Part shown: in pieces, positions 8,421 to 60,365 of the stretch
How the letters are laid out: each line of letters opens with the position of its first letter
How positions within the stretch are numbered: position 1 is the first letter of the stretch
From: Anaerolineae bacterium
Lineage (GTDB): Bacteria; Chloroflexota; Anaerolineae; CG2-30-64-16
NCBI GenBank assembly: GCA_034434235.1
Contig: DAOTZV010000129.1
Span: 24,284 to 88,283 of the forward strand
Length of the DNA: 64,000 nucleotides
Direction: 5' to 3'
Notes under the pieces: generated by a model
What the model was told of the DNA's origin: nothing
Database searches by the model: none
The model's input: the letters and a program-made list of their open reading frames with translations, nothing else
Translations under genes and position numbers: made by a program

Positions 8421-9320
8421 CTACTCCGTCCGGCGGATGCGTGGGTTGGCCAGCTCATCGAGGCCCATGTTGATCAGGGCCAGCGAACCGAGGATGAGCA
8501 CCATCGCGATGGCGGGCTCAAGCGGCCACCACCACCAGCCGTTGAAGAAGGCGCCCTGCGATTGCGCCGCCCAGATCGTGTTGCCCAGCAGCGGCTCGCG
8601 CAGCGGCCCCAGGCCGAGCACCGCCAGATAAAACGAGGCGAACATGGATGAGAAGACCTGCCCCACGAATGCGGCGGCGATGAAAGGCAACAGATTGGGC
8701 AGGATCTCCTGAAAGATGATGCCCAGGTCGCCCATGCCCGACAGCTTCGCCACCGAAACGAACTGACGCTCCTTCATCGAAAGCACCTGCGCCCGAATCA
8801 CCAGGGTCGGATTCATCCAGGCCAGCAACACGACGATGAACGCCATGGTGTAGATCGTCACCTCCCGCTTATCAATCGAGCCGGCGATGACGACCTGGAT
8901 CAAGAAGGCCGGGATGGGCGTCAGGATCTGGCAGACGCCTTTGATGGCGGCGTCGATCGCGCCGCCGAAGTAGGCCGAAGTGAAGCCCAGGAACACGCCG
9001 ATCAGCGTGCCGATGGCGCCGGCGATGATGCCGATGAGCGCCGTCTGCCACAGCCCCACCACCATCGCCGCGTACAGATCGCGGCCGAAGAAGTCGGTGC
9101 CGAAGGGATACTTCGCGCTGGGGGGGAGCTTGGGGGGCGCCGCCAGCGGATAGGCGTTCTTCGGGTCAATGGTCAACATGCCGTGGATGGTGAAGACCGC
9201 CAGGGCCAGCACGACAAGCAAGCCGACGACCAGGCTTTGATTGCGGCGCAAATAGCGCAACACCAGCACCAGGCGGCTTGGTCGCAACACATCGGGTTGA
9301 GAAATCGCCACTGTAGTCAT
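8421..9320 (-). CDS. oppC: ABC transporter permease (OppC/DppC-like)
   Basis: Six predicted TM segments, N-terminal periplasmic segment, in-operon position. Confidence 0.8.
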   Translation of the reverse strand: MTTVAISQPDVLRPSRLVLVLRYLRRNQSLVVGLLVVLALAVFTIHGMLTIDPKNAYPLAAPPKLPPSAKYPFGTDFFGRDLYAAMVVGLWQTALIGIIAGAIGTLIGVFLGFTSAYFGGAIDAAIKGVCQILTPIPAFLIQVVIAGSIDKREVTIYTMAFIVVLLAWMNPTLVIRAQVLSMKERQFVSVAKLSGMGDLGIIFQEILPNLLPFIAAAFVGQVFSSMFASFYLAVLGLGPLREPLLGNTIWAAQSQGAFFNGWWWWPLEPAIAMVLILGSLALINMGLDELANPRIRRTE

Positions 9321-14242: not shown

Positions 14243-17200
14243 ATGGGAATTTCAGTGCGCGCTTTGGCAATTGCGGTCATTTCCGCTGTGCTCGTTGTGG
14301 CCGGCGCGGGCGCCCTGGTGTGGGCGACGGGCACACAGGATGGCACCGGCGCAATTGCTGGCGTCGTCTTCTTTGACAAAGATGCCGACGCTGCGCGCGG
14401 ACCGGCCGAAGGCGGACTTGCCGGAGTGACGGTGGAACTGCGCGATGGCGTGACCGGCGGCCAGGCCGTGCATCGCTTTGTGCAAACCGCCTCTGACGGC
14501 TCCTTCAGCTTCGCGGAGCTGAGCGCTGGCGCCTACACGGTCGCCGTCCTCCCGGCCGATCCCTTCACGGCCACGACGACCAGCCCCGTAGCGGTGGTGG
14601 TCGACTCTGCGCCTGTCGTCGGCGTGGATTTCGGCGCCACGCTTCTCCAGACTCTCACCGGCACCGAATTCAACGATCTGAACGGCGATGGCGCCAAGGG
14701 ACCACGCGAGCCGGGCATCGCCGGCTGGCTGATCCAGGTCTTCGACGATGTCAACGGCAACGGCCTGGTCGACATGGGTGAGGCGTTGTTGGGCTCGGCC
14801 GTTAGCGACCACCAGGGAAACTGGAAGGTGTCCGGGCTGTTGCCGGGCCGCCGCGTGGTCGTGCGTCGGCCTCCGGCCGGCGCAGAAGCGATGGCCGATC
14901 CGCTCTCGCTGACGGCCGAGGAGGCCGGCGGCGCCGGCCATCTGTGGAACGGCCGGCCCGAGGCGCGGACGGCGCCTGCCTCTGTCAATGCCGATGCCGC
15001 GGCCTATGTGCCGGGCGAGCTGTTGGTGGGCGTTCAGCCGGGCCTCTCGCTGGCGCGCGTCGCCGAGATCTTCCGGGATCTCGGTCTCGCGATCAGAGAG
15101 CCGTTGGGCGGAGATGCCTATCGGGTGGCGACGACCGAGGACGCGGCCGATGCCGCGCTGGATGCGTTGAAACGCCTGCCCGAGGTGCGTTACGCTGAGC
15201 GCAACGGCCTCGTCAGCGCGCTGCTCACGCCGACCGAGCCGCTCTTCAACGATCCGTTTTACATCTTTGCGCCGCAGACGATCAACGCGCCGACGGCCTG
15301 GGACATCTCCACCGGTTCGCCGGAGGTGATCGTTGCCATCGTGGATTCGGGCATCTCGCTTTCGCATCCTGAGTTTGCCGGTCGTCTGGTTGCCGGCTGG
15401 GACTACGTCAACGGCGACAGCGATCCGTCCGATGACAACGGCCATGGCACACACGTGGCCGGCATCGTGGCCGCAGCCATGAACGGCGAGGGTGTGGTCG
15501 GCATCGCGCCGAACGTCAGGCTGATGCCCGTCAAGATCCTCAACGCATCGAAGACCGCCACCTGGGCCAACACGGCCTTGGGGATCCGCTATGCGGCCGA
15601 CCACGGCGCGAAGGTGATCAACCTGAGCATGGGAGGCACTTCCTACTCGGCCGCGCTTCAGGATGCCATCCGTTACGCCGCCGGCAAGGGGGTCGTCATA
15701 GTCGCTGCTGCGGGCAATCAGGGGAGCAGCGGGCCGTTCTATCCGGCCTATTTCGAGGAGACGATCGCCGTCGGCGCGACGGACGAACACGACGAATATT
15801 GGACGATCTCCAACTATGGCAACTGGGTGGACGTAACGGCGCCCGGCGCCAGCATCTACAGCACCTGGTGGACGGCGGACAACCCCAATACCTATGGCTT
15901 CATGAGCGGGACTTCGATGGCGGCCCCGCACGTCAGCGGCCTGGCCGCCCTTCTGCTTTCGTATCGGCCCCAGCTTTCGGCGGCCGATGTGCGCGCCATC
16001 ATCCAGCAGACCGCGGTGGACAAGGGCGCGGCCGGCTTCGATATTTACTACGGTTGGGGCCGCATTGACGCAGGCGCGGCCATGACACTGGCGACGACCT
16101 GGATCCCCTACACTCCCACGCCGACGGCCACGGCGACGGCCACGCCGTCGGCCACGCCGACAGCGACGCCAACGAATACACCGACACCGACGTCGACGAA
16201 TACGCCGACAGCGACGCCAACGAATACACCGACACCGACGGCAACGAATACGCCGACGCCCACGCCGACCGCCACGCCGACGGCAGTGCCGTATCTGAAG
16301 CGGGTCAACGCGGGCGGGGCGAGCTTCACCGACAGCCTGGGCCAGGTGTGGGATCCGGATCAGGCGTATGCGACCGGTGGCTGGGGCTATGTGAGCGGCA
16401 CGGCCAAATCCTCGACCACTGCGGTGAACGGCACGGTGGACGACCTGCTCTACCAGAAGTACCGCGAGGGGATGACCGCATATCAATTCACGGTGCCGAA
16501 CGGTCAGTACCAGGTGACGCTCAAATTCGCCGAGTTCGCCGCCAGCAGTTCGAAGCAGCGCATCATGAAGATCACGATCGAGGGCGTGGTGGTGGAAAGC
16601 GCGCTCAACGTGCTGGCGTTGGCCGGCAAGGCCACGGCTTTCGATCGCACCTACACGACGACGGTGGCCGACGGCATACTGAACATCGCCTTTGCGCAGA
16701 ACGGCGGCAGCTACAAGCCGATGGTGTCGGCCATCGAAGTGAAAAGCGCCGAGGCCGGGCCGACCGGCACGGGCACCGAGCCGACGCCGATAGCAACAAA
16801 TGTGCCGATCGCAACGGCAACGAATACGCCGACCCCGACGCCGACGCCAACCCGGCCGGCCTACAGCGTGCGCGTGGACGCGGGTGGCCCGACCTTTACC
16901 GATGGCCAGGGGCTCACCTGGCAGGCCGACCAGGCCTTCAGCGCGGGGTCGTGGGGCTACATCGGTGGGTCGCCCGGCTCCTCGACGGTCGCAGTGGCCG
17001 GCACGAAGGACGACCTGCTGTTCCAGAAGTACCGACAGGGGATGTCGGAGTTCAGGTTCACGGTGCCGAACGGCAGCTATCAGGTGCAGTTGCGGTTCGC
17101 CGAGTTCGCGGCCACCGGGCCGGGCCAGCGGGTGATGGAGATCACCCTGGAAGGGACGCCGGTGGAGAGCGCGTTGGACGTGTATGCGGCGGCCGGCGGC

Positions 17201-34846: not shown

Positions 34847-37800
34847 TTACTGCGACAGCGTCAGCCGTACGGTCTTGATCTCAAACGGCCGGAAGTCGAG
34901 CGCGATCTGGCCATCGTCGCACGCCAGGTCGGCCACATGCGCCTCCAGCATGTCGGTCAGCGCGGCGCGGCCGACCGGCAGGGTGGTGGACAGGACCGCG
35001 CGCGTCGCCGTGTGCTTCGCCTCATAGAGCCGCACCACCACATCGGCCGAGCCGTCTTCGGCCGGCTTGACCGTCTCGATGATGATATTCGGCGCATCCA
35101 CGCTGAAGAGAGAGCGCTCCCCGCCGTCGCCGGCCGCGGTCGTGGCCGGCACGTTCAGCTCGTAGGCCTCGCGCACGACATCGCTCTCGGCCAGGGGACC
35201 GTTCCAGGCGTAGAAGCTGTAGGTGAAGGTCTGGATCCCTTTGTCGGCCGTCATGTCGGGCGCCAGGGCCGATTTGAGCAGGGTCAGGTTGATCGAGTTG
35301 CCCAGGACGTTGACGCCGTACTTGCTGTCGTTGAGCACCGCGCAACCCCGCGCCTCTTCGGCCAGCGCGGTCCACTTGTGGTTGCACACCTCGAAGCGGT
35401 TGGCGTCGAACGGCCGCGAGTAGTGGTTGGGCCGCCGGATGTGGCCGAACTGGATCTCGTGAATTGCTTCGTTGGCGTGCACGGTGACCGGGAAGGCCAC
35501 CTTGAGGAGCTTGTGGCTTTCGCGCCAGTCCACGGTCGTGGCGAAATCCACCCGTCGGCTGTTGCGGCGCAGGCTGATCACCTGCGTCATGGTCGAGTGG
35601 TGCAGTTGCCGGGTGACGCGCAGCCGCGCTTCGAGCGGCCCCGCGGCCTCCACGACGATCGTCGCCGGCTCGGTCAGTTCCACCGGTGTCTCCGTGTACA
35701 TGCTGTCGATGTCCCAGGCGTCCCACGCGCCCGGCACGTCCTTGTACATCTTGAAGCTGTTGCACGGCCCGGCGGCCAGCTCGCGCTGCGCCTCCTTGTC
35801 GAAGAGGCTGACGATCTCGCCCAGGTCGTTGAACTCGATCCGCAGGCACTCGTTCTCCAGCATGCGCGGGGTCGCCTGCAGGGCATTCGATGTCGCTGCC
35901 GCCCCTGCCCCCCCAAAGTTGGGGGGAACGGAGGGCCACCAGATCGTCGTCCAGCCGCACGACGGCACGGTTACCTCGGCCCAGGCGGCATCGGCTTCGA
36001 CCTGCACCGGCAGCGGCCGGCCCGCGCGGTCGGCCGCCGTCTGCGCGCCGGCCGGCAGGCGCACCAGCGCCCGTCGTGGCCACGAGAGGGAGTTGAACAC
36101 GGTGACGGCCTCGGCCGGCCGCACCAGGGCCGCCTGCGCCTGGCCGGCCGCCCGGCGGGCCGCGGCGATCGCCTCGGCGTGGCTGGCCTCGGCTTCCTCG
36201 TAGACGCGATGGATCGAGGAGCCGGGCAGGATGTCGTGGAACTGGTTCAGCAGGACGGTGCGCCACGCCTCTTCCAGGTCGGCCGCCGGATAGGCGTAGC
36301 CGGGTCCGGCAAGAGCGCGCGCGGCCGCGCCCCACATCTCGGCTTCGCGCAACGCCAGCTCGGCGCGACGGTTGTTCTGCTTGGTCCTGGCCTGCGATGT
36401 GTACGTGCCGCGGTGCGCCTGGAAGTAGAGCTCGCCCACGTAGCGCTCGCGCGGCAGGCCGCGGCGCTCCAGGTCCTTGAAGAATTCGATCGGGGAAGCC
36501 ATCTTCACCCGCGGGAGGCCCTCCAGGTCTTTGGTCCGGCGCAGGAACTCCAGATGGTTGCGGGTGGGGCCGCCGCCGCCGTCGCCGTGGCCGAACGCCA
36601 GCAGGATCGTGCTGATGCCGTCCTTCTGGACGCGCTGGCGCCAGCGTTGCATCAGCGCGTTGGGATCGGTGTAGCTGTTGTAGTCGTTGAAGATGTGGGC
36701 CAGGACGGCGGTGCCGTCGATCCCTTCCCACATGAACGTGTTGTAGGGGAACGGATCGCCGCCGTTGTAGGTCCAAAAGATCTTCTGCGTGGCGAAATAC
36801 TTGATGCCGCAGCCGGCCATGATCTGCGGCAGCGCGCCGGAATAGCCGAACACGTCGGGCAACCAGAGCAGTTCGTTTTCCGCGCCGAACTCCTGTTTGA
36901 AGAAGCGCTTGCCGTGGATGAACTGGCGGATCAGCGCCTCGCCGCCGCTGATGTTGGTGTCGGCCTCGATCCACATGCCGCCTTCGGGGATGATCTTGCC
37001 GGCCTTGACCGCGGCCTTGACCTCCTCGTACTTGGCCGGATAGCGGCGTCGGAGCATCCAGTAGAGGTGCGGCTGGCTCTGGATGAACTTGAACTCGGGG
37101 TATTCCTGCATCAGCGCCAGTTGGGTGCTGATGGTGCGCGCCATCTTGCGCTCGGTCTCCTGGAGCGGCCAGAGCCACGCCACGTCTATGTGCGAATGGC
37201 CGATGGCGAAGAGGGTCGGCGCGGTGCTGCCGTTGACGCATTCGAGGAGCGGCTTGAGCCGCGCCCGCGCCCGGCGCACGGTGGCCAGGAACTCGTCGGG
37301 CGGCAGCTCGGGATCGGCGATCAGCGTGAAGTCCTTCAGGCCGGCGTCTATCTCGGCCACGCGGAGCGAATCGGGGTCGAGCAGGTTGCGGGTCTGGAAC
37401 AGCGTTTCGACGTCGAGCCAGAGCTGATAGACCTCTTCGTTCCAGATGCCGAAGGTGGTTTCGCCGACGGCGGTTTGCGTGGGGGGCGGCTCGGGCACGC
37501 TTTCGCGGCCGTAGCCCACCGGCCCCTTGCCGGCGGTGCGCAGGCCGTGGCCGGCGTAGGCTTCGATCAGAAGCTCGTAGCGGGCGCCCGGCGCGCCGCT
37601 CATGGCCAGGGTGATCTCGGTGTGCTCGCGGTCAATTGCGCCGGCCAGCCGGCCGTTGATCCACACCGCGCTTTCGCCGCCCGGGTTGGCCCGCAATACG
37701 ATGCGTTGGCCGGCCGCGGAAGGCGGCAGGACGATCTCGCCCTTGAACCAGCCGTATTCCCACTTGGCGCCCCAGCGGGTGCCGACCGGCATCGGCGCGA

Positions 37801-37948
37801 AGGGGCCGGCCAGGGCCTGGTCGGCCGTCAGTTGCTCTTTGGTGACGAAGCCGCTCAGCTCGACGGCGCCGAGCGGGCGGTAGAAGTGGTTCGTCAGCTC
37901 ATCGCGCCAGTTGGTGACGCGACGCAGCCACTCGGGATTGAGGGACAT
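34847..37948 (-). CDS. Alpha-mannosidase, glycoside hydrolase family 38
   Basis: 1033 aa; the N-terminal region and the GH38 catalytic block FAIGHSHIDVAWLWP are recognised. Confidence 0.85.
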   Translation of the reverse strand: MSLNPEWLRRVTNWRDELTNHFYRPLGAVELSGFVTKEQLTADQALAGPFAPMPVGTRWGAKWEYGWFKGEIVLPPSAAGQRIVLRANPGGESAVWINGRLAGAIDREHTEITLAMSGAPGARYELLIEAYAGHGLRTAGKGPVGYGRESVPEPPPTQTAVGETTFGIWNEEVYQLWLDVETLFQTRNLLDPDSLRVAEIDAGLKDFTLIADPELPPDEFLATVRRARARLKPLLECVNGSTAPTLFAIGHSHIDVAWLWPLQETERKMARTISTQLALMQEYPEFKFIQSQPHLYWMLRRRYPAKYEEVKAAVKAGKIIPEGGMWIEADTNISGGEALIRQFIHGKRFFKQEFGAENELLWLPDVFGYSGALPQIMAGCGIKYFATQKIFWTYNGGDPFPYNTFMWEGIDGTAVLAHIFNDYNSYTDPNALMQRWRQRVQKDGISTILLAFGHGDGGGGPTRNHLEFLRRTKDLEGLPRVKMASPIEFFKDLERRGLPRERYVGELYFQAHRGTYTSQARTKQNNRRAELALREAEMWGAAARALAGPGYAYPAADLEEAWRTVLLNQFHDILPGSSIHRVYEEAEASHAEAIAAARRAAGQAQAALVRPAEAVTVFNSLSWPRRALVRLPAGAQTAADRAGRPLPVQVEADAAWAEVTVPSCGWTTIWWPSVPPNFGGAGAAATSNALQATPRMLENECLRIEFNDLGEIVSLFDKEAQRELAAGPCNSFKMYKDVPGAWDAWDIDSMYTETPVELTEPATIVVEAAGPLEARLRVTRQLHHSTMTQVISLRRNSRRVDFATTVDWRESHKLLKVAFPVTVHANEAIHEIQFGHIRRPNHYSRPFDANRFEVCNHKWTALAEEARGCAVLNDSKYGVNVLGNSINLTLLKSALAPDMTADKGIQTFTYSFYAWNGPLAESDVVREAYELNVPATTAAGDGGERSLFSVDAPNIIIETVKPAEDGSADVVVRLYEAKHTATRAVLSTTLPVGRAALTDMLEAHVADLACDDGQIALDFRPFEIKTVRLTLSQ
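35905..35937. repeat. Palindromic G/C-run element (CCCCTGCCCCCCC-AAAGTT-GGGGGG) embedded in frame in the mannosidase gene
   Basis: Read directly; the translated insert is ...SVPPNFGGAGAAA...; same family as the three copies at 42596-42716. Confidence 0.6.
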
Positions 37949-41094: not shown

Positions 41095-41106
41095 GGTGGA
41101 TGCTCC

Positions 41107-41160
41107 GTGAAACGTAAAACGTAAAACGTAAAACGTAAAACGTGAAGCGTGAAATGTGAG
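41107..41160. repeat. Tandem heptamer array (R)AAACGT x7 (mRNA-sense ACGTTTY) filling the intergenic 5' leader of the Gfo/Idh/MocA gene
   Basis: Read directly: GAAACGT AAAACGT AAAACGT AAAACGT AAAACGT GAAGCGT GAAATGT; it ends 13 nt before the start codon. Confidence 0.7.
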
Positions 41161-41168
41161 CAGTTTGG

Positions 41169-43175
41169 TTACTGGATCTCGACCTCCCCACACCGGATCT
41201 GGCCCGGCGCGCCGGGCGCTTCGAGGATGAGCCGATAGGTTCCGCGCGGGGTCACGGGGTTCAGGTTGACGTCGTGATGGCTGCGCACGATCTCGCCGGC
41301 CACCCAGCGGTCGGCCGGCCAGAGGCCGAACGCGTCGTTCGGCCGGGCCATGCTCTCGCCCCACACCTGGCCCTGCGCGTCCACCAGCCGGAAGCGCGGG
41401 CGGAGCTCGCCGGCGGCCGGCCGGTCGCCGGGCCGCCAGTAGCTCGTTACGTGGATCCATGCGCTCGGCGGATGGAACAGGTCGTCGCGCGGGCGCAAGG
41501 CGGCCGGATCATACAGACAGGCCAACGGCTGCACGCCGTCCAGGGCCGGCCAATCGCTGCGAGACGGCACGTTCGACGGCAGGTCGGCCAGCCGATAGCG
41601 CTGGTCGTAGACGTGGATGGCGATCCCCGGCGGGAATACCTCGGTGATCAGCGGATAGCGCGCGGCGAACCAGCCCAACACCACGTTGTTCGGGTCCAGC
41701 TCCTGATGGTGCGACTGTACCACCCACACCGCGTCGAAGGGGGCCAGCCCCGCCAGCGGCCCCTCCACCTGGTCCGCATCGCGGATCCGGTCGGTGAACG
41801 GGACGAAGATGTCCTGCGGGCCGCGGAAGTAGCGCCGGAACGCGATCTGGACGTAGTCGGGCTGGATCAGGATGGCGTCATGGGGGCCGGCGTGCGCCTG
41901 CACGAACGCCGCGGCCTCGCGCCATGCCTCGCGGCGATTCTGCGGCGCCCAATCGTAGGGCAGCGCGGCCGCCGTCGTCGCGAAGATCAGGCCGGCCGCC
42001 GCCAACCCGACCGGCCGGCGCCAGGCCCACAGCCGGTCGAGCGCCCGGCCCAGCGCCACGCAGAGCGCCGGCGCCAGGGCGATCTGGTAGCGCGTTTCGG
42101 CGAAGGTGCGGCTGTCGCGGCTCAGCAGGGCGCCGCCGATCAGGATCACGACGAGCGGCCAGATGAGGATGTAGAGTCCGCCACTTCGCCGGTTGCCGCG
42201 ATCGGCCGGCAGGAAGCAGCCGAGGAGGGCCAGCGCTCCCATCCCCGCGGCCAGGATCGTCGTCAGGCGGGCGTCCCATGCGGGCCAGCCGAGCGTGTAG
42301 GCCCTCAGCATCGTCGCGAGGGGCGCCCACATTCCCTCGAACGGCCGACCCGGTACGGCCTCGGCACCGCTCACCCGCCACGCCGACCAGGCCAGCGGCA
42401 GGAAGAGCACTGCGGCGATGCCCAGGCCCAGGACGCCCAGCCAGAAATCGCGATCCGCGTCCCGTTCGCCCCGCCGCGTCCAGCGCGCCATCAGCAGCCA
42501 GAGCCCGGCCACCGGCAGCAGGAAGGCACTGTAGAGATAGCTGTAGAGCGCGGCCGCGAAGCCGCCGCTGAGCAACAGCAGGGCGAGCGAGGACGGCCCC
42601 CCCCTCCCCCCAACTTTGGGGGGCGCCCCCCCTTCCCCCCAATCTTGGGGGGCCAGGGGGGCGGCCCCCCCCTCCCCCCCAATGTTGGGGGGCCAGGGGC
42701 GCGGGGGCGTGCGCCATGCGCCATGCGCCGCCCGCAGGAGGCCGTAAAGCCCCACCAGCGCGAAGGCCGTCGCCGGCATGAACATGCGCGCTTCCTGGCT
42801 ATACCACACCAGGAACGGGTTGATCGCCAGCAGGAGCGCGGCGAACGCGGCCCCGCGTGGCCCGCTCAGCCGCCGGCCGATTCCGTAGAGCGGCAACACG
42901 GCCAGCGCGCCGATCAGCGCGCCGAGGGAACGCACGGCCAGATCGCTCCCGCCGACCAGCGCCGTCCAGCCGTGCAGCAGGAGGTAATAGAGCGGCGGGT
43001 GCTTGTCCTGGACGAGCGCCATGCCCACGCGCCAGATCTCGCCGGCCGGCCGACCGGCCCAGTACGTACTGACGACCTCGTCGAACCACAGGCTATGGTA
43101 CGTGAGATGGTAGAAGCGCACGCCGAGCGCCAGGACCAGGATCCAGCTCAGCGGATGGCACAGTAATCGCCTCAT
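41169..43175 (-). CDS. Membrane glycosyltransferase, family 39 / PMT-ArnT-like (dolichyl-phosphate-mannose-protein mannosyltransferase superfamily)
   Basis: N-terminal multi-TM region with the family-typical WFDEVVSTYWAG...DKHPPLYYLL, and a large C-terminal soluble domain. It contains a low-complexity Pro/Gly insertion encoded by the repeat at 42596-42716. Confidence 0.7.
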   Translation of the reverse strand: MRRLLCHPLSWILVLALGVRFYHLTYHSLWFDEVVSTYWAGRPAGEIWRVGMALVQDKHPPLYYLLLHGWTALVGGSDLAVRSLGALIGALAVLPLYGIGRRLSGPRGAAFAALLLAINPFLVWYSQEARMFMPATAFALVGLYGLLRAAHGAWRTPPRPWPPNIGGEGGAAPLAPQDWGEGGAPPKVGGRGGPSSLALLLLSGGFAAALYSYLYSAFLLPVAGLWLLMARWTRRGERDADRDFWLGVLGLGIAAVLFLPLAWSAWRVSGAEAVPGRPFEGMWAPLATMLRAYTLGWPAWDARLTTILAAGMGALALLGCFLPADRGNRRSGGLYILIWPLVVILIGGALLSRDSRTFAETRYQIALAPALCVALGRALDRLWAWRRPVGLAAAGLIFATTAAALPYDWAPQNRREAWREAAAFVQAHAGPHDAILIQPDYVQIAFRRYFRGPQDIFVPFTDRIRDADQVEGPLAGLAPFDAVWVVQSHHQELDPNNVVLGWFAARYPLITEVFPPGIAIHVYDQRYRLADLPSNVPSRSDWPALDGVQPLACLYDPAALRPRDDLFHPPSAWIHVTSYWRPGDRPAAGELRPRFRLVDAQGQVWGESMARPNDAFGLWPADRWVAGEIVRSHHDVNLNPVTPRGTYRLILEAPGAPGQIRCGEVEIQ
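42596..42716. repeat. Three tandem copies of a palindromic G/C-run element (C7-8 T C6-7 / AAYNTT / G6) inside the GT39 coding sequence
   Basis: Read directly: CCCCCCCCTCCCCCC-AACTTT-GGGGGG, CCCCCCCTTCCCCCC-AATCTT-GGGGGG, CCCCCCCCTCCCCCCC-AATGTT-GGGGGG. Translated on the gene strand as ...PPNIGGEGGAAPLAPQDWGEGGAPPKVGGRGG.... Confidence 0.7.
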
Positions 43176-60277: not shown

Positions 60278-60294
60278 GGGATGTCCTCCGATAG

Positions 60295-60365
60295 TCAAAC
60301 GTCAAACGTAAAACGTCAAACGTAAAACGTCAAACGTGAAACGTGAGACGTTTTACGTTTTACTT
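60295..60365. repeat. Tandem heptamer array (C/A)AAACGT x8 followed by two inverted copies (ACGTTTT), occupying the whole intergenic leader of the isomerase gene
   Basis: Read directly: CAAACGT CAAACGT AAAACGT CAAACGT AAAACGT CAAACGT GAAACGT GAGACGT TTTACGT TTTAC; same unit as the array at 41107-41160. Confidence 0.7.

Follow-up and report, generated by a model that had tools for sequence, protein, structure and literature searches.

A 38-nucleotide nested-hairpin sequence inside two genes of an Anaerolineae bacterium, a probable member of a dispersed repeat family

That palindromic repeats can colonise genes in frame is known mainly from the Rickettsia palindromic elements (RPEs), and such colonisation has been proposed as a source of new protein segments. 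As described by Ogata et al. (2000), and related in passages of two later papers, RPEs are dispersed palindromic repeats that lie in frame in many unrelated protein genes whose products are still functional; according to the same passages they add a peptide segment at fold-compatible positions and have no known autonomous parent (PMC10969869, PMC3733652). They are about 100-150 bp long, with ~150 bp given in PMC10969869, and are confined to Rickettsia. Here we describe a 38-nucleotide (nt) nested-hairpin sequence, copy A, in a GH38 alpha-mannosidase gene of an Anaerolineae bacterium, together with three further copies in a GT39-type glycosyltransferase gene on the same 64-kb stretch of contig DAOTZV010000129.1 (the window; G+C 63-71%, 66% overall). 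We read window positions 35899-35936 as one copy of a dispersed, non-autonomous repeat that occurs in Chloroflexota and, in a longer two-hairpin form, in cyanobacteria, and put the probability of this reading at about three in four. Like the RPEs, it is a palindromic repeat in frame in unrelated intact open reading frames (ORFs), namely the GH38 and GT39 genes here and six Pfam-verified genes elsewhere. It differs in its length of 38 nt, in its C/G runs, in being open and used in all six frames, and in its hosts. Judged by size and host range from published descriptions rather than by comparing sequences, it would be an analogue of the RPEs and not a member, and in behaviour they are the closest analogue known.

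Repetitive extragenic palindromic (REP) sequences and REPINs are imperfect palindromes of 20-40 nt, high in copy number and non-autonomous, that are mobilised by RAYT (Y1/HUH) enzymes without target-site duplication (PMC3116915, PMC3733652). The present element resembles them in its short imperfect hairpin with conserved mismatches, in its occurrence at more than 200 loci, in the lack of a target-site duplication and in the extragenic position of its cyanobacterial copies. It differs in that a matrix of 61 copies has G-CCCCCC as its 5' and GGGGGG-C as its 3' end, with neither a GTAG nor a CGTC head, and in that the Chloroflexota copies are intragenic, extragenic placement being found for the cyanobacterial copies only. 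No RAYT gene was seen in the 8-kb stretches around copies. The small dispersed repeats (SDRs) that Elhai and co-workers reportedly described from Nostoc in 2008 are said to be hairpin-capable cyanobacterial sequences of 21-27 nt, mobile-like, often nested in other repeats and without a known mechanism, and to lie in the non-coding DNA of heterocystous cyanobacteria. We know of no SDR described in Chloroflexota or in frame in genes; by this description the element may be related to them.

[quoted passage not shown] Many long-form cyanobacterial copies of the element likewise lie within larger hairpin units, whose outer repeats match the terminal repeat of ISPlag1 (PMC2464740), whereas the C6/G6 arms are the only terminal repeats of the 38-nt unit, which has no target duplication and no evident parent insertion sequence. 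On the last two grounds it is probably not a classical MITE. The 38-nt unit is carried by more than one kind of MITE shell and is thus a nested module, not itself one of these shells. PARCELs are described as palindromic amphipathic repeat coding sequences that are tandemly repeated within genes for surface proteins, in Mollicutes and in other microbes; they share with the element the presence of palindromic DNA repeats within coding sequence, translatable on either strand, and differ in not being 38-nt C/G hairpins scattered in housekeeping enzymes (PMC2996958). Searches of 8 million papers, by literal sequence and by keywords on palindromic repeats, in-frame repeats and MITEs of Chloroflexi and cyanobacteria, returned no published description of the element; of the literal matches only the ISPlag1 terminal repeat was informative, as it accounts for one outer shell.

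Anatomy of the unit and its copies in the window

The four copies in the window have in common, besides the core hairpin, a C-run upstream and a G-run downstream that enclose it. From 61 non-redundant copies in public genomes and metagenomes a consensus of 38 nt was obtained, G-CCCCCC-TGG-CCCCCC-AA(A/c)(G/t)TT-GGGGGG-AAC-GGGGGG-C. The two sides of its internal loop, TGG and AAC, are non-complementary and so give the unit a defined orientation. The position matrix is biased at positions fixed by the search pattern; the 3' AAC-G6-C and the 5' G, which lie outside the search patterns, are conserved in roughly 70-100% of the copies, and the bases that flank the unit are not conserved. When the window was scanned with nhmmer using the profile of these independent copies, matches were obtained in four places only, one in the GH38 gene and three in the GT39 gene. 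The 18-nt core was found with up to three mismatches at the same number of sites (4 sites, 8 strand matches) against 0.08 matches expected, a result reached by none of 100 shuffles. The nhmmer scan of the 64 kb detected no further degenerate copies, and no other C6/G6 pairs of this kind were found there. The sequence GGGGGGGAGCTTGGGGGG at 9120-9137 (G7-AGCTT-G6) was considered as a copy and rejected, as it is not a palindrome and has no profile match.

Copy A occupies 35899..35936 on the + strand and reads C-CGCCCC-TGC-CCCCCC-AAAGTT-GGGGGG-AAC-GGAGGG-C (nhmmer E = 4.5e-9 on the + strand and 2.6e-4 on the - strand), or, written as a nested palindrome, (C)CGCCCC-TGC-CCCCCCAAAGTTGGGGGG-AAC-GGAGGG-C. 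A preliminary description of this DNA, made from the letters alone, had placed a palindromic G/C-run element at 35905-35937; the profile places it at 35900-35936 (+), so these coordinates were right to within a few bases. The string given there, CCCCTGCCCCCCC-AAAGTT-GGGGGG, is indeed present at 35902-35926, where the + strand reads CCCCTGCCCCCCCAAAGTTGGGGGG. The core palindrome (35909..35926, strandless) consists of perfect 8-bp arms around two central bases, CCCCCCAA-AG-TTGGGGGG. Copy A deviates from the consensus in its slightly imperfect outer arms, CGCCCC...GGAGGG, and in reading TGC where the consensus has TGG. An unrelated Anaerolineae metagenome-assembled genome (MAG; locus L109) contains the TGC...AACGGAGGGC variant as well, and AACGGAGGGC is also found in L179, which suggests that the deviation may be at least partly a subfamily trait rather than decay in place.

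The nested hairpin of copy A is predicted to fold at -27 to -29 kcal/mol as RNA and at -12 to -15 kcal/mol as DNA, and the GT39 array at -99.7 kcal/mol. The folding z-scores, -1.3 to -3.2, are no more than modest, since C/G runs still pair after shuffling. Six loci with canonical copies, searched against Rfam by E-value, matched no family and gave only sub-threshold, spurious microRNA matches.

A third nested layer was seen in some compact copies (L195:5603, L208, L214 and others), of the form CCCC-TGG-CCC..[38 nt]..GGG-AAC-GGGG. The TGG/AAC motif is thereby repeated symmetrically at both sides.

Filled and empty sites in the two host genes

The GH38 alpha-mannosidase gene (34847..37948, - strand, 1033 aa) is intact, with all four GH38 Pfam domains (N, mid, C and C2; PF01074, PF09261, PF07748 and PF17677) above their cut-offs and uninterrupted. 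Copy A, whose canonical orientation is the + strand, is antisense to the gene and lies between PF09261, which ends at residue 608, and PF07748, which starts at residue 697. Translation of the ORF across the element gives ...CGWTTIWWPSVPPNFGGAGAAATSNALQAT..., and the gene-strand peptide of copy A is (P)SVPPNFGGAGA (in-frame reading PSVPPNFGGAGAA); the ORF reads ...WWPSVPPNFGGAGAAATS... there, and the in-frame reading on the gene strand that had been proposed earlier was borne out. The element corresponds to residues ~672-685, in a coil between predicted beta-strands at 665-670 and 691-693. An AlphaFold2 model of the protein (mean pLDDT 85, pTM 0.86) has residues 671-690 in coil and gives the element peptide, residues 676-685, pLDDT values below 50. 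A disordered loop at this position, as modelled, would plausibly explain why the element is tolerated.

The codons of the element are foreign to the GH38 gene. Outside the element GGG makes up 8% of the glycine codons and TTT 5% of the phenylalanine codons, and the probability of encoding PPNFGG as CCC CCC AAC TTT GGG GGG under the gene's own usage is 3e-5. The preliminary description had named ordinary codon usage and a peptide shared among GH38 orthologues as the two observations that would speak against it, and neither was obtained. Alignment of 36 orthologues (66-83% identity) revealed unrelated, shorter linkers, with the element peptide absent from all of them; the site lies in a surface linker, the one hypervariable stretch, rich in indels, that is bounded by the conserved motifs CGWTT and AT..LENE.

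Closer relatives supply the empty site. The 90%-identity cluster comprises 13 proteins, eight with the element (identical there in protein sequence), four without it and one fragment (P0128) that does not cover the site. Eight assemblies of this lineage have the element (P0001, P0121, P0123, P0129-P0132 and L169). The four that lack it (P0122, P0125, P0126 and P0127; 89-96% amino-acid identity) read WWKA-----EGARPEATANAL or similar where the carriers have WWPSVPPNFGGAGAAATSNAL; the presence/absence difference among related strains that had been suggested as a check therefore exists. At the DNA level two relatives (L002 and L003) are 93.3% identical over the GH38 gene, and their flanks can be matched to those of the window base for base. 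The segment bounded by TGGTGG and GCGACA, however, measures 24 nt in the relatives (AAGGCGGAAGGCGCCCGGCCGGAG) and 39 nt in the window (CCCTCCGTTCCCCCCAACTTTGGGGGGGCAGGGGCGGCA), where it is the whole element; one sequence has replaced another, and the gene is longer by 15 nt (5 codons). Comparison of the filled and empty GH38 sites revealed no target-site duplication. Because the outgroups are short at this position, the element was gained in this lineage. The arrival of copy A in the GH38 gene is thus recent and postdates the split from relatives 93% identical in DNA, and the gene stayed intact. A one-step replacement and an insertion followed by a deletion would both be compatible with the sequences at a background divergence of 7%. 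The proposal of a dispersed, mobile or recombinogenic element is supported, with the qualification that the event at GH38 does not have the form of a clean insertion.

The statement that two genes host the element also proved correct. A PMT_2/GT39-type membrane glycosyltransferase gene (41169..43175, - strand, 668 aa, Pfam PF13231) holds three copies on the - strand, sense to the gene, with cores between 42606 and 42692: B3 at 42665..42702 (core 42675-42692; E = 1.8e-8), read as PWPPNIGGEGG; B2 at 42625..42662 (core 42635-42652; E = 1.5e-11), read in another frame as APLAPQDWGEGG (PQDWGEGG); and B1 at 42596..42625 (core 42606-42623; E = 2.1e-6), which has no 5' outer arm of its own and is read as PPKVGGRGG. 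The spacings between them are 40 and 29 nt, which add up to 69 nt (23 codons). Since the three copies are read in different frames (PPNIGGEGG, PQDWGEGG and PPKVGGRGG), the thing repeated is DNA and not a peptide. The array sits in a loop, and GT39 orthologues (at most 75% identity) lack the entire G/C-run segment of ~35 amino acids.

The array differs even between near-identical assemblies. Over 22 kb an ENA contig (L169) shares 99.86% identity with the window, yet it carries five copies where the window has three, by way of two extra 54-nt (18-codon) units, L169:10594-10660 corresponding to window 42581-42624. This is either a strain polymorphism or an assembly collapse, and the array is unstable either way. 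Elsewhere, adjacent pairs and single copies in orthologous genes differ by exactly 33 nt (L196 versus L178 and L210; L228 versus L192, L194 and L244). Arrays therefore grow by in-frame tandem duplication of 33- or 54-nt units. Self-insertion into the element's own arm was considered as the origin of the tandem pairs and set aside, the 33-nt in-frame tandem duplication being simpler.

Distribution and relation to reading frames

One genome for each of 185,579 species was scanned with the pattern CCCCCC-N1-3-CCCCCCAANNTTGGGGGG, which yielded at least 118 loci. The named taxa among the matches listed were all Cyanobacteria or Chloroflexota, except for one Armatimonadota MAG. The cyanobacterial matches include Okeania, Moorena, Lyngbya, Petrachloros, Snowella, Waterburya, Gloeobacterales and others, with cultured isolates and the closed chromosome of Altericista sp. 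CCNU0014 among them; those in Chloroflexota fall in Anaerolineae, Caldilineaceae, Ardenticatenales, Chloroflexia and Thermomicrobiales. A scan of metagenomes for the compact form added 84 loci with G+C contents of 0.34-0.72, most of them at least 0.55, including seven contigs from the source organism's own metagenome (Ga0272448) and five copies on one contig from Ga0068707. Together the two scans give more than 200 unrelated loci, and the claim that the element is dispersed is supported by a 38-nt unit at hundreds of such loci in two phyla.

Most copies among the matches listed from the genome scan are of the long form, GCCCCCC-TAG/TAA-[C6-AAnnTT-G6]-AAC-spacer-[TC5-AGAATT-G5]-xx-GGGGGGC, in which an outer stem encloses two hairpins and which often lies within still larger inverted repeats. 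In one cyanobacterial subfamily (L075, L079, L081, L087, L112 and L136) the outer repeat is CAGGACTTACGCA, the terminal repeat of ISPlag1, an IS701-group element (terminal inverted repeat CAGGACTTACGCA...; PMC2464740). The conserved shells around other cyanobacterial copies are of other kinds, GAGGATATCTGAAAAGTTTTTTGATACTGAATTTT- and GGCGTTGCTGATTCTGGGTATGATTTT- among them.

In the two groups of hosts the element stands in different relation to genes. At cyanobacterial loci with a G+C content below 0.5, 15% of the copies lie in ORFs against 64% of random positions, and these copies are mostly extragenic, like REPs or MITEs. On high-GC metagenome contigs an ORF of at least 600 nt spans 96% of the copies against 86% of random positions on the same contigs, so that coverage of the copies was taken to equal that of random positions. 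Six copies lie inside Pfam-verified genes, which encode a GH20 enzyme, a MalK-like ATPase, an adenine deaminase, a B12 radical-SAM enzyme, a CoA ligase and a BTAD regulator. In one more Pfam-checked case (L073) the copy lies just upstream of a diacylglycerol-kinase start codon. In the adenine deaminase of the Chloroflexota MAG CSMAG_2462 (L106:1744) a two-hairpin long-form copy is in frame within the amidohydrolase domain, with ...TDDRH before it and EGHID after it, and by comparison with the E. coli enzyme the insert would come to ~35 residues.

All six frames of the compact unit are free of stop codons, and each of them codes for Pro-Pro...Gly-Gly; the peptides of the six frame and orientation classes are PPWPPKVGGNGG, PPGPPKLGGTGG, APLAPQSWGERG, PPVPPNFGGPGG, PPFPPTLGGQGG and APRSPQLWGARG. 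All six classes are used by the 52 non-redundant compact copies in long ORFs (sense 10/5/10, antisense 8/9/10). The intergenic long form has TAG or TAA at the position where the intragenic compact form has TGG.

Several other sequences came to light in the scans. Chloroflexota long-form copies from Caldilineaceae and Chloroflexia (L066, L103, L115, L129, L142 and L147) have an extra flanking inverted repeat, GTAAGCGTTCACCCCCG...CGGGGGTGAACGCTTAC, which makes a branched hairpin unit of ~110 nt. A variant with an AACGTT loop in the Thermomicrobiales MAG YX1bin8 (L070, L099, L102 and L162), GGCCCCCCCGG-CCCCCCAACGTTGGGGGG-AGAGGACG..., has a different conserved downstream part without the second hairpin and could represent either a distinct repeat or a small RNA gene. 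Viral contigs scanned for the bare 18-mer gave 45 matches, mostly CCCCCCAAAATTGGGGGGTTTT terminators of AT-rich phages; these are unrelated to the element, and the 18-mer core alone is therefore not diagnostic. Three AT-rich viral contigs (L023:6525-6566, L025:12325-12366 and L040:118-135) carry 24-nt tandem units (GGTACT-CCCCCCAATTTTGGGGGG) or long C/G runs at the ends of the contigs or close to them; these could be terminal repeats or artefacts and are likewise unrelated to the element.

Mode of spread and alternative explanations

In the MalK-like ABC ATPase gene one orthologous copy has been kept in three taxa (L078:6949, L187:9962 and L215:1888) with flanks that are ~13% divergent; all 26 bases of its arms are the same, whereas the central dinucleotide has been inverted (AAAGTT versus AACTTT). 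Loop inversion and arm-to-arm correction are known products of intrastrand template switching, as in quasi-palindrome mutagenesis and in hairpin-loop inversions of plastid DNA. The flipped loop between perfect arms thus suggests that the hairpin forms in DNA in vivo, and the arms may be kept perfect by such intrastrand correction or by selection.

Alternatively, the sequence might be more than selfish DNA, namely a functional cis-element kept by its hosts, such as a very stable mRNA hairpin for ribosome pausing or transcript protection, a binding site for a dimeric protein, or a site of phase variation by slippage in G6-G8/C6-C8 tracts. Apart from the complete arm conservation in the MalK-like gene, this explanation could draw on the conserved asymmetric internal loop TGG/AAC, on the strong hairpins predicted for copy A and the array, and on run lengths and copy numbers that vary between near-identical assemblies. 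We nevertheless regard it as unlikely. Both orientations and all frames are represented among the copies, which are found in intergenic DNA as well as in unrelated genes and share no common gene class; close relatives do without the GH38 copy; homopolymer stems give no covariation signal to test, and Rfam has no match; and the conservation of the arms is also explicable by intrastrand correction.

A number of points weigh against a dispersed mobile repeat, the reading that we prefer. The outer arms of copy A are imperfect. The change at GH38 is a replacement and not a clean insertion, and with the nearest empty site 7% diverged its boundaries cannot be fixed. Among 26 perfect copies no direct repeat of 2-5 nt exceeded the permutation expectation for a target-site duplication, and no conserved flanking tetranucleotide was found. 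All-versus-all clustering of 1,493 ORFs from 8-kb stretches at 118 loci detected no protein family enriched near copies; TnpB is present at 5 of the 118 loci, 1.4-5.8 kb from the copies and at no fixed distance. The copies of the source organism are known from the 64-kb window alone, the difference in array copy number could partly reflect repeat collapse in short-read assembly, and coding status in high-GC contigs is judged by ORF length except in the seven Pfam-checked ORFs.

The missing target-site duplication makes classical DDE transposition unlikely. It is equally compatible with mobilisation of single-stranded hairpins by HUH/Y1 enzymes and with template switching or ectopic conversion. 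We propose that the element is a short, non-autonomous repeat, non-coding by origin, that might spread at the DNA level through its hairpin and leave no target-site duplication. One conceivable route would be through a trans-acting enzyme encoded elsewhere, of the HUH/Y1 transposase type, as for REP/REPIN and IS200/IS605; another would be template switching or ectopic gene conversion at stalled forks. With low confidence we favour a hairpin-dependent, trans-mobilised, non-autonomous element, the enzyme being putative. The GH38 gene would have survived its arrival because the net change was a multiple of three, no stop codon occurs in any of the six frames, and Pro-Pro...Gly-Gly probably forms a flexible loop.

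The same replacement of 24 by 39 nt, with neither clean boundaries nor a duplication, could also have arisen locally and independently, by slippage and quasi-palindrome template switching in a GC-rich linker with no transfer between loci. The empty site holds a small palindrome, CCGGCCGG, and the arrays clearly grow by local duplication. Such an origin is distinctly improbable, because it cannot explain how more than 200 unrelated loci in two phyla come to have an identical 38-nt order, with its non-complementary TGG/AAC loop, nor the identical TGC...AACGGAGGGC variant in L109, and the window contains no other such C6/G6 pairs despite its 66% G+C.

Even less credence can be given to an ordinary variable linker, or a selected Pro/Gly peptide motif, in which the palindrome is incidental. 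The site is hypervariable and indel-rich in all orthologues and P/G-rich linkers are common, but the three GT39 copies encode different peptides in different frames, the six frames are used about equally across the family, and this explanation is already contradicted by the improbable codon choice and by the absence of the peptide from every orthologue. A sequencing or assembly artefact, such as poly-G noise or a chimeric join, is scarcely credible: homopolymer-rich sequence is error-prone and array copy number does differ between assemblies, but independent assemblies from JGI and Logan give an identical copy A, the proteins of ENA and NCBI assemblies keep the peptide, the reading frames are kept open, and the element is present in isolate genomes, one of them a closed chromosome.

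Beyond the identification of copy A as a dispersed repeat, we tentatively entertain a broader reading that may or may not hold in all its parts. The element would belong to an undescribed family of nested-hairpin mini-elements in two phyla, whose 'coding-neutral' design lets it colonise Chloroflexota genes, whose spread is hairpin-dependent and free of duplication, whose arms are corrected within the strand, and which seeds loops, peptide arrays and slippage-prone G/C tracts. As a second independent system beside the RPEs it would show in-frame colonisation to be general, in a much smaller repeat of free-living Chloroflexota with intergenic cousins in cyanobacteria, and would supply a simple rule for the tolerance of repeats in genes, namely that they be open in six frames and code for a loop. 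Many filled and empty orthologous sites would allow the movement of very short repeats to be worked out, a question that dates from the REPs and the cyanobacterial SDRs. Homopolymer tracts and strong hairpins inside genes also matter for assembly, gene calling and frameshift artefacts in MAGs.

Other repeats are present in the window. [quoted passage not shown] Heptamers form two tandem arrays, CGTAAAA x7 at 41106-41154, directly 3' of the GT39 gene (stop at 41169), and GTCAAAC/AAACGTG x7-8 at 60294-60351. They recall the short tandemly repeated repetitive (STRR) heptamers of cyanobacteria. A 12/48-nt tandem repeat (ACGCCGAC...) lies at 16116-16284.

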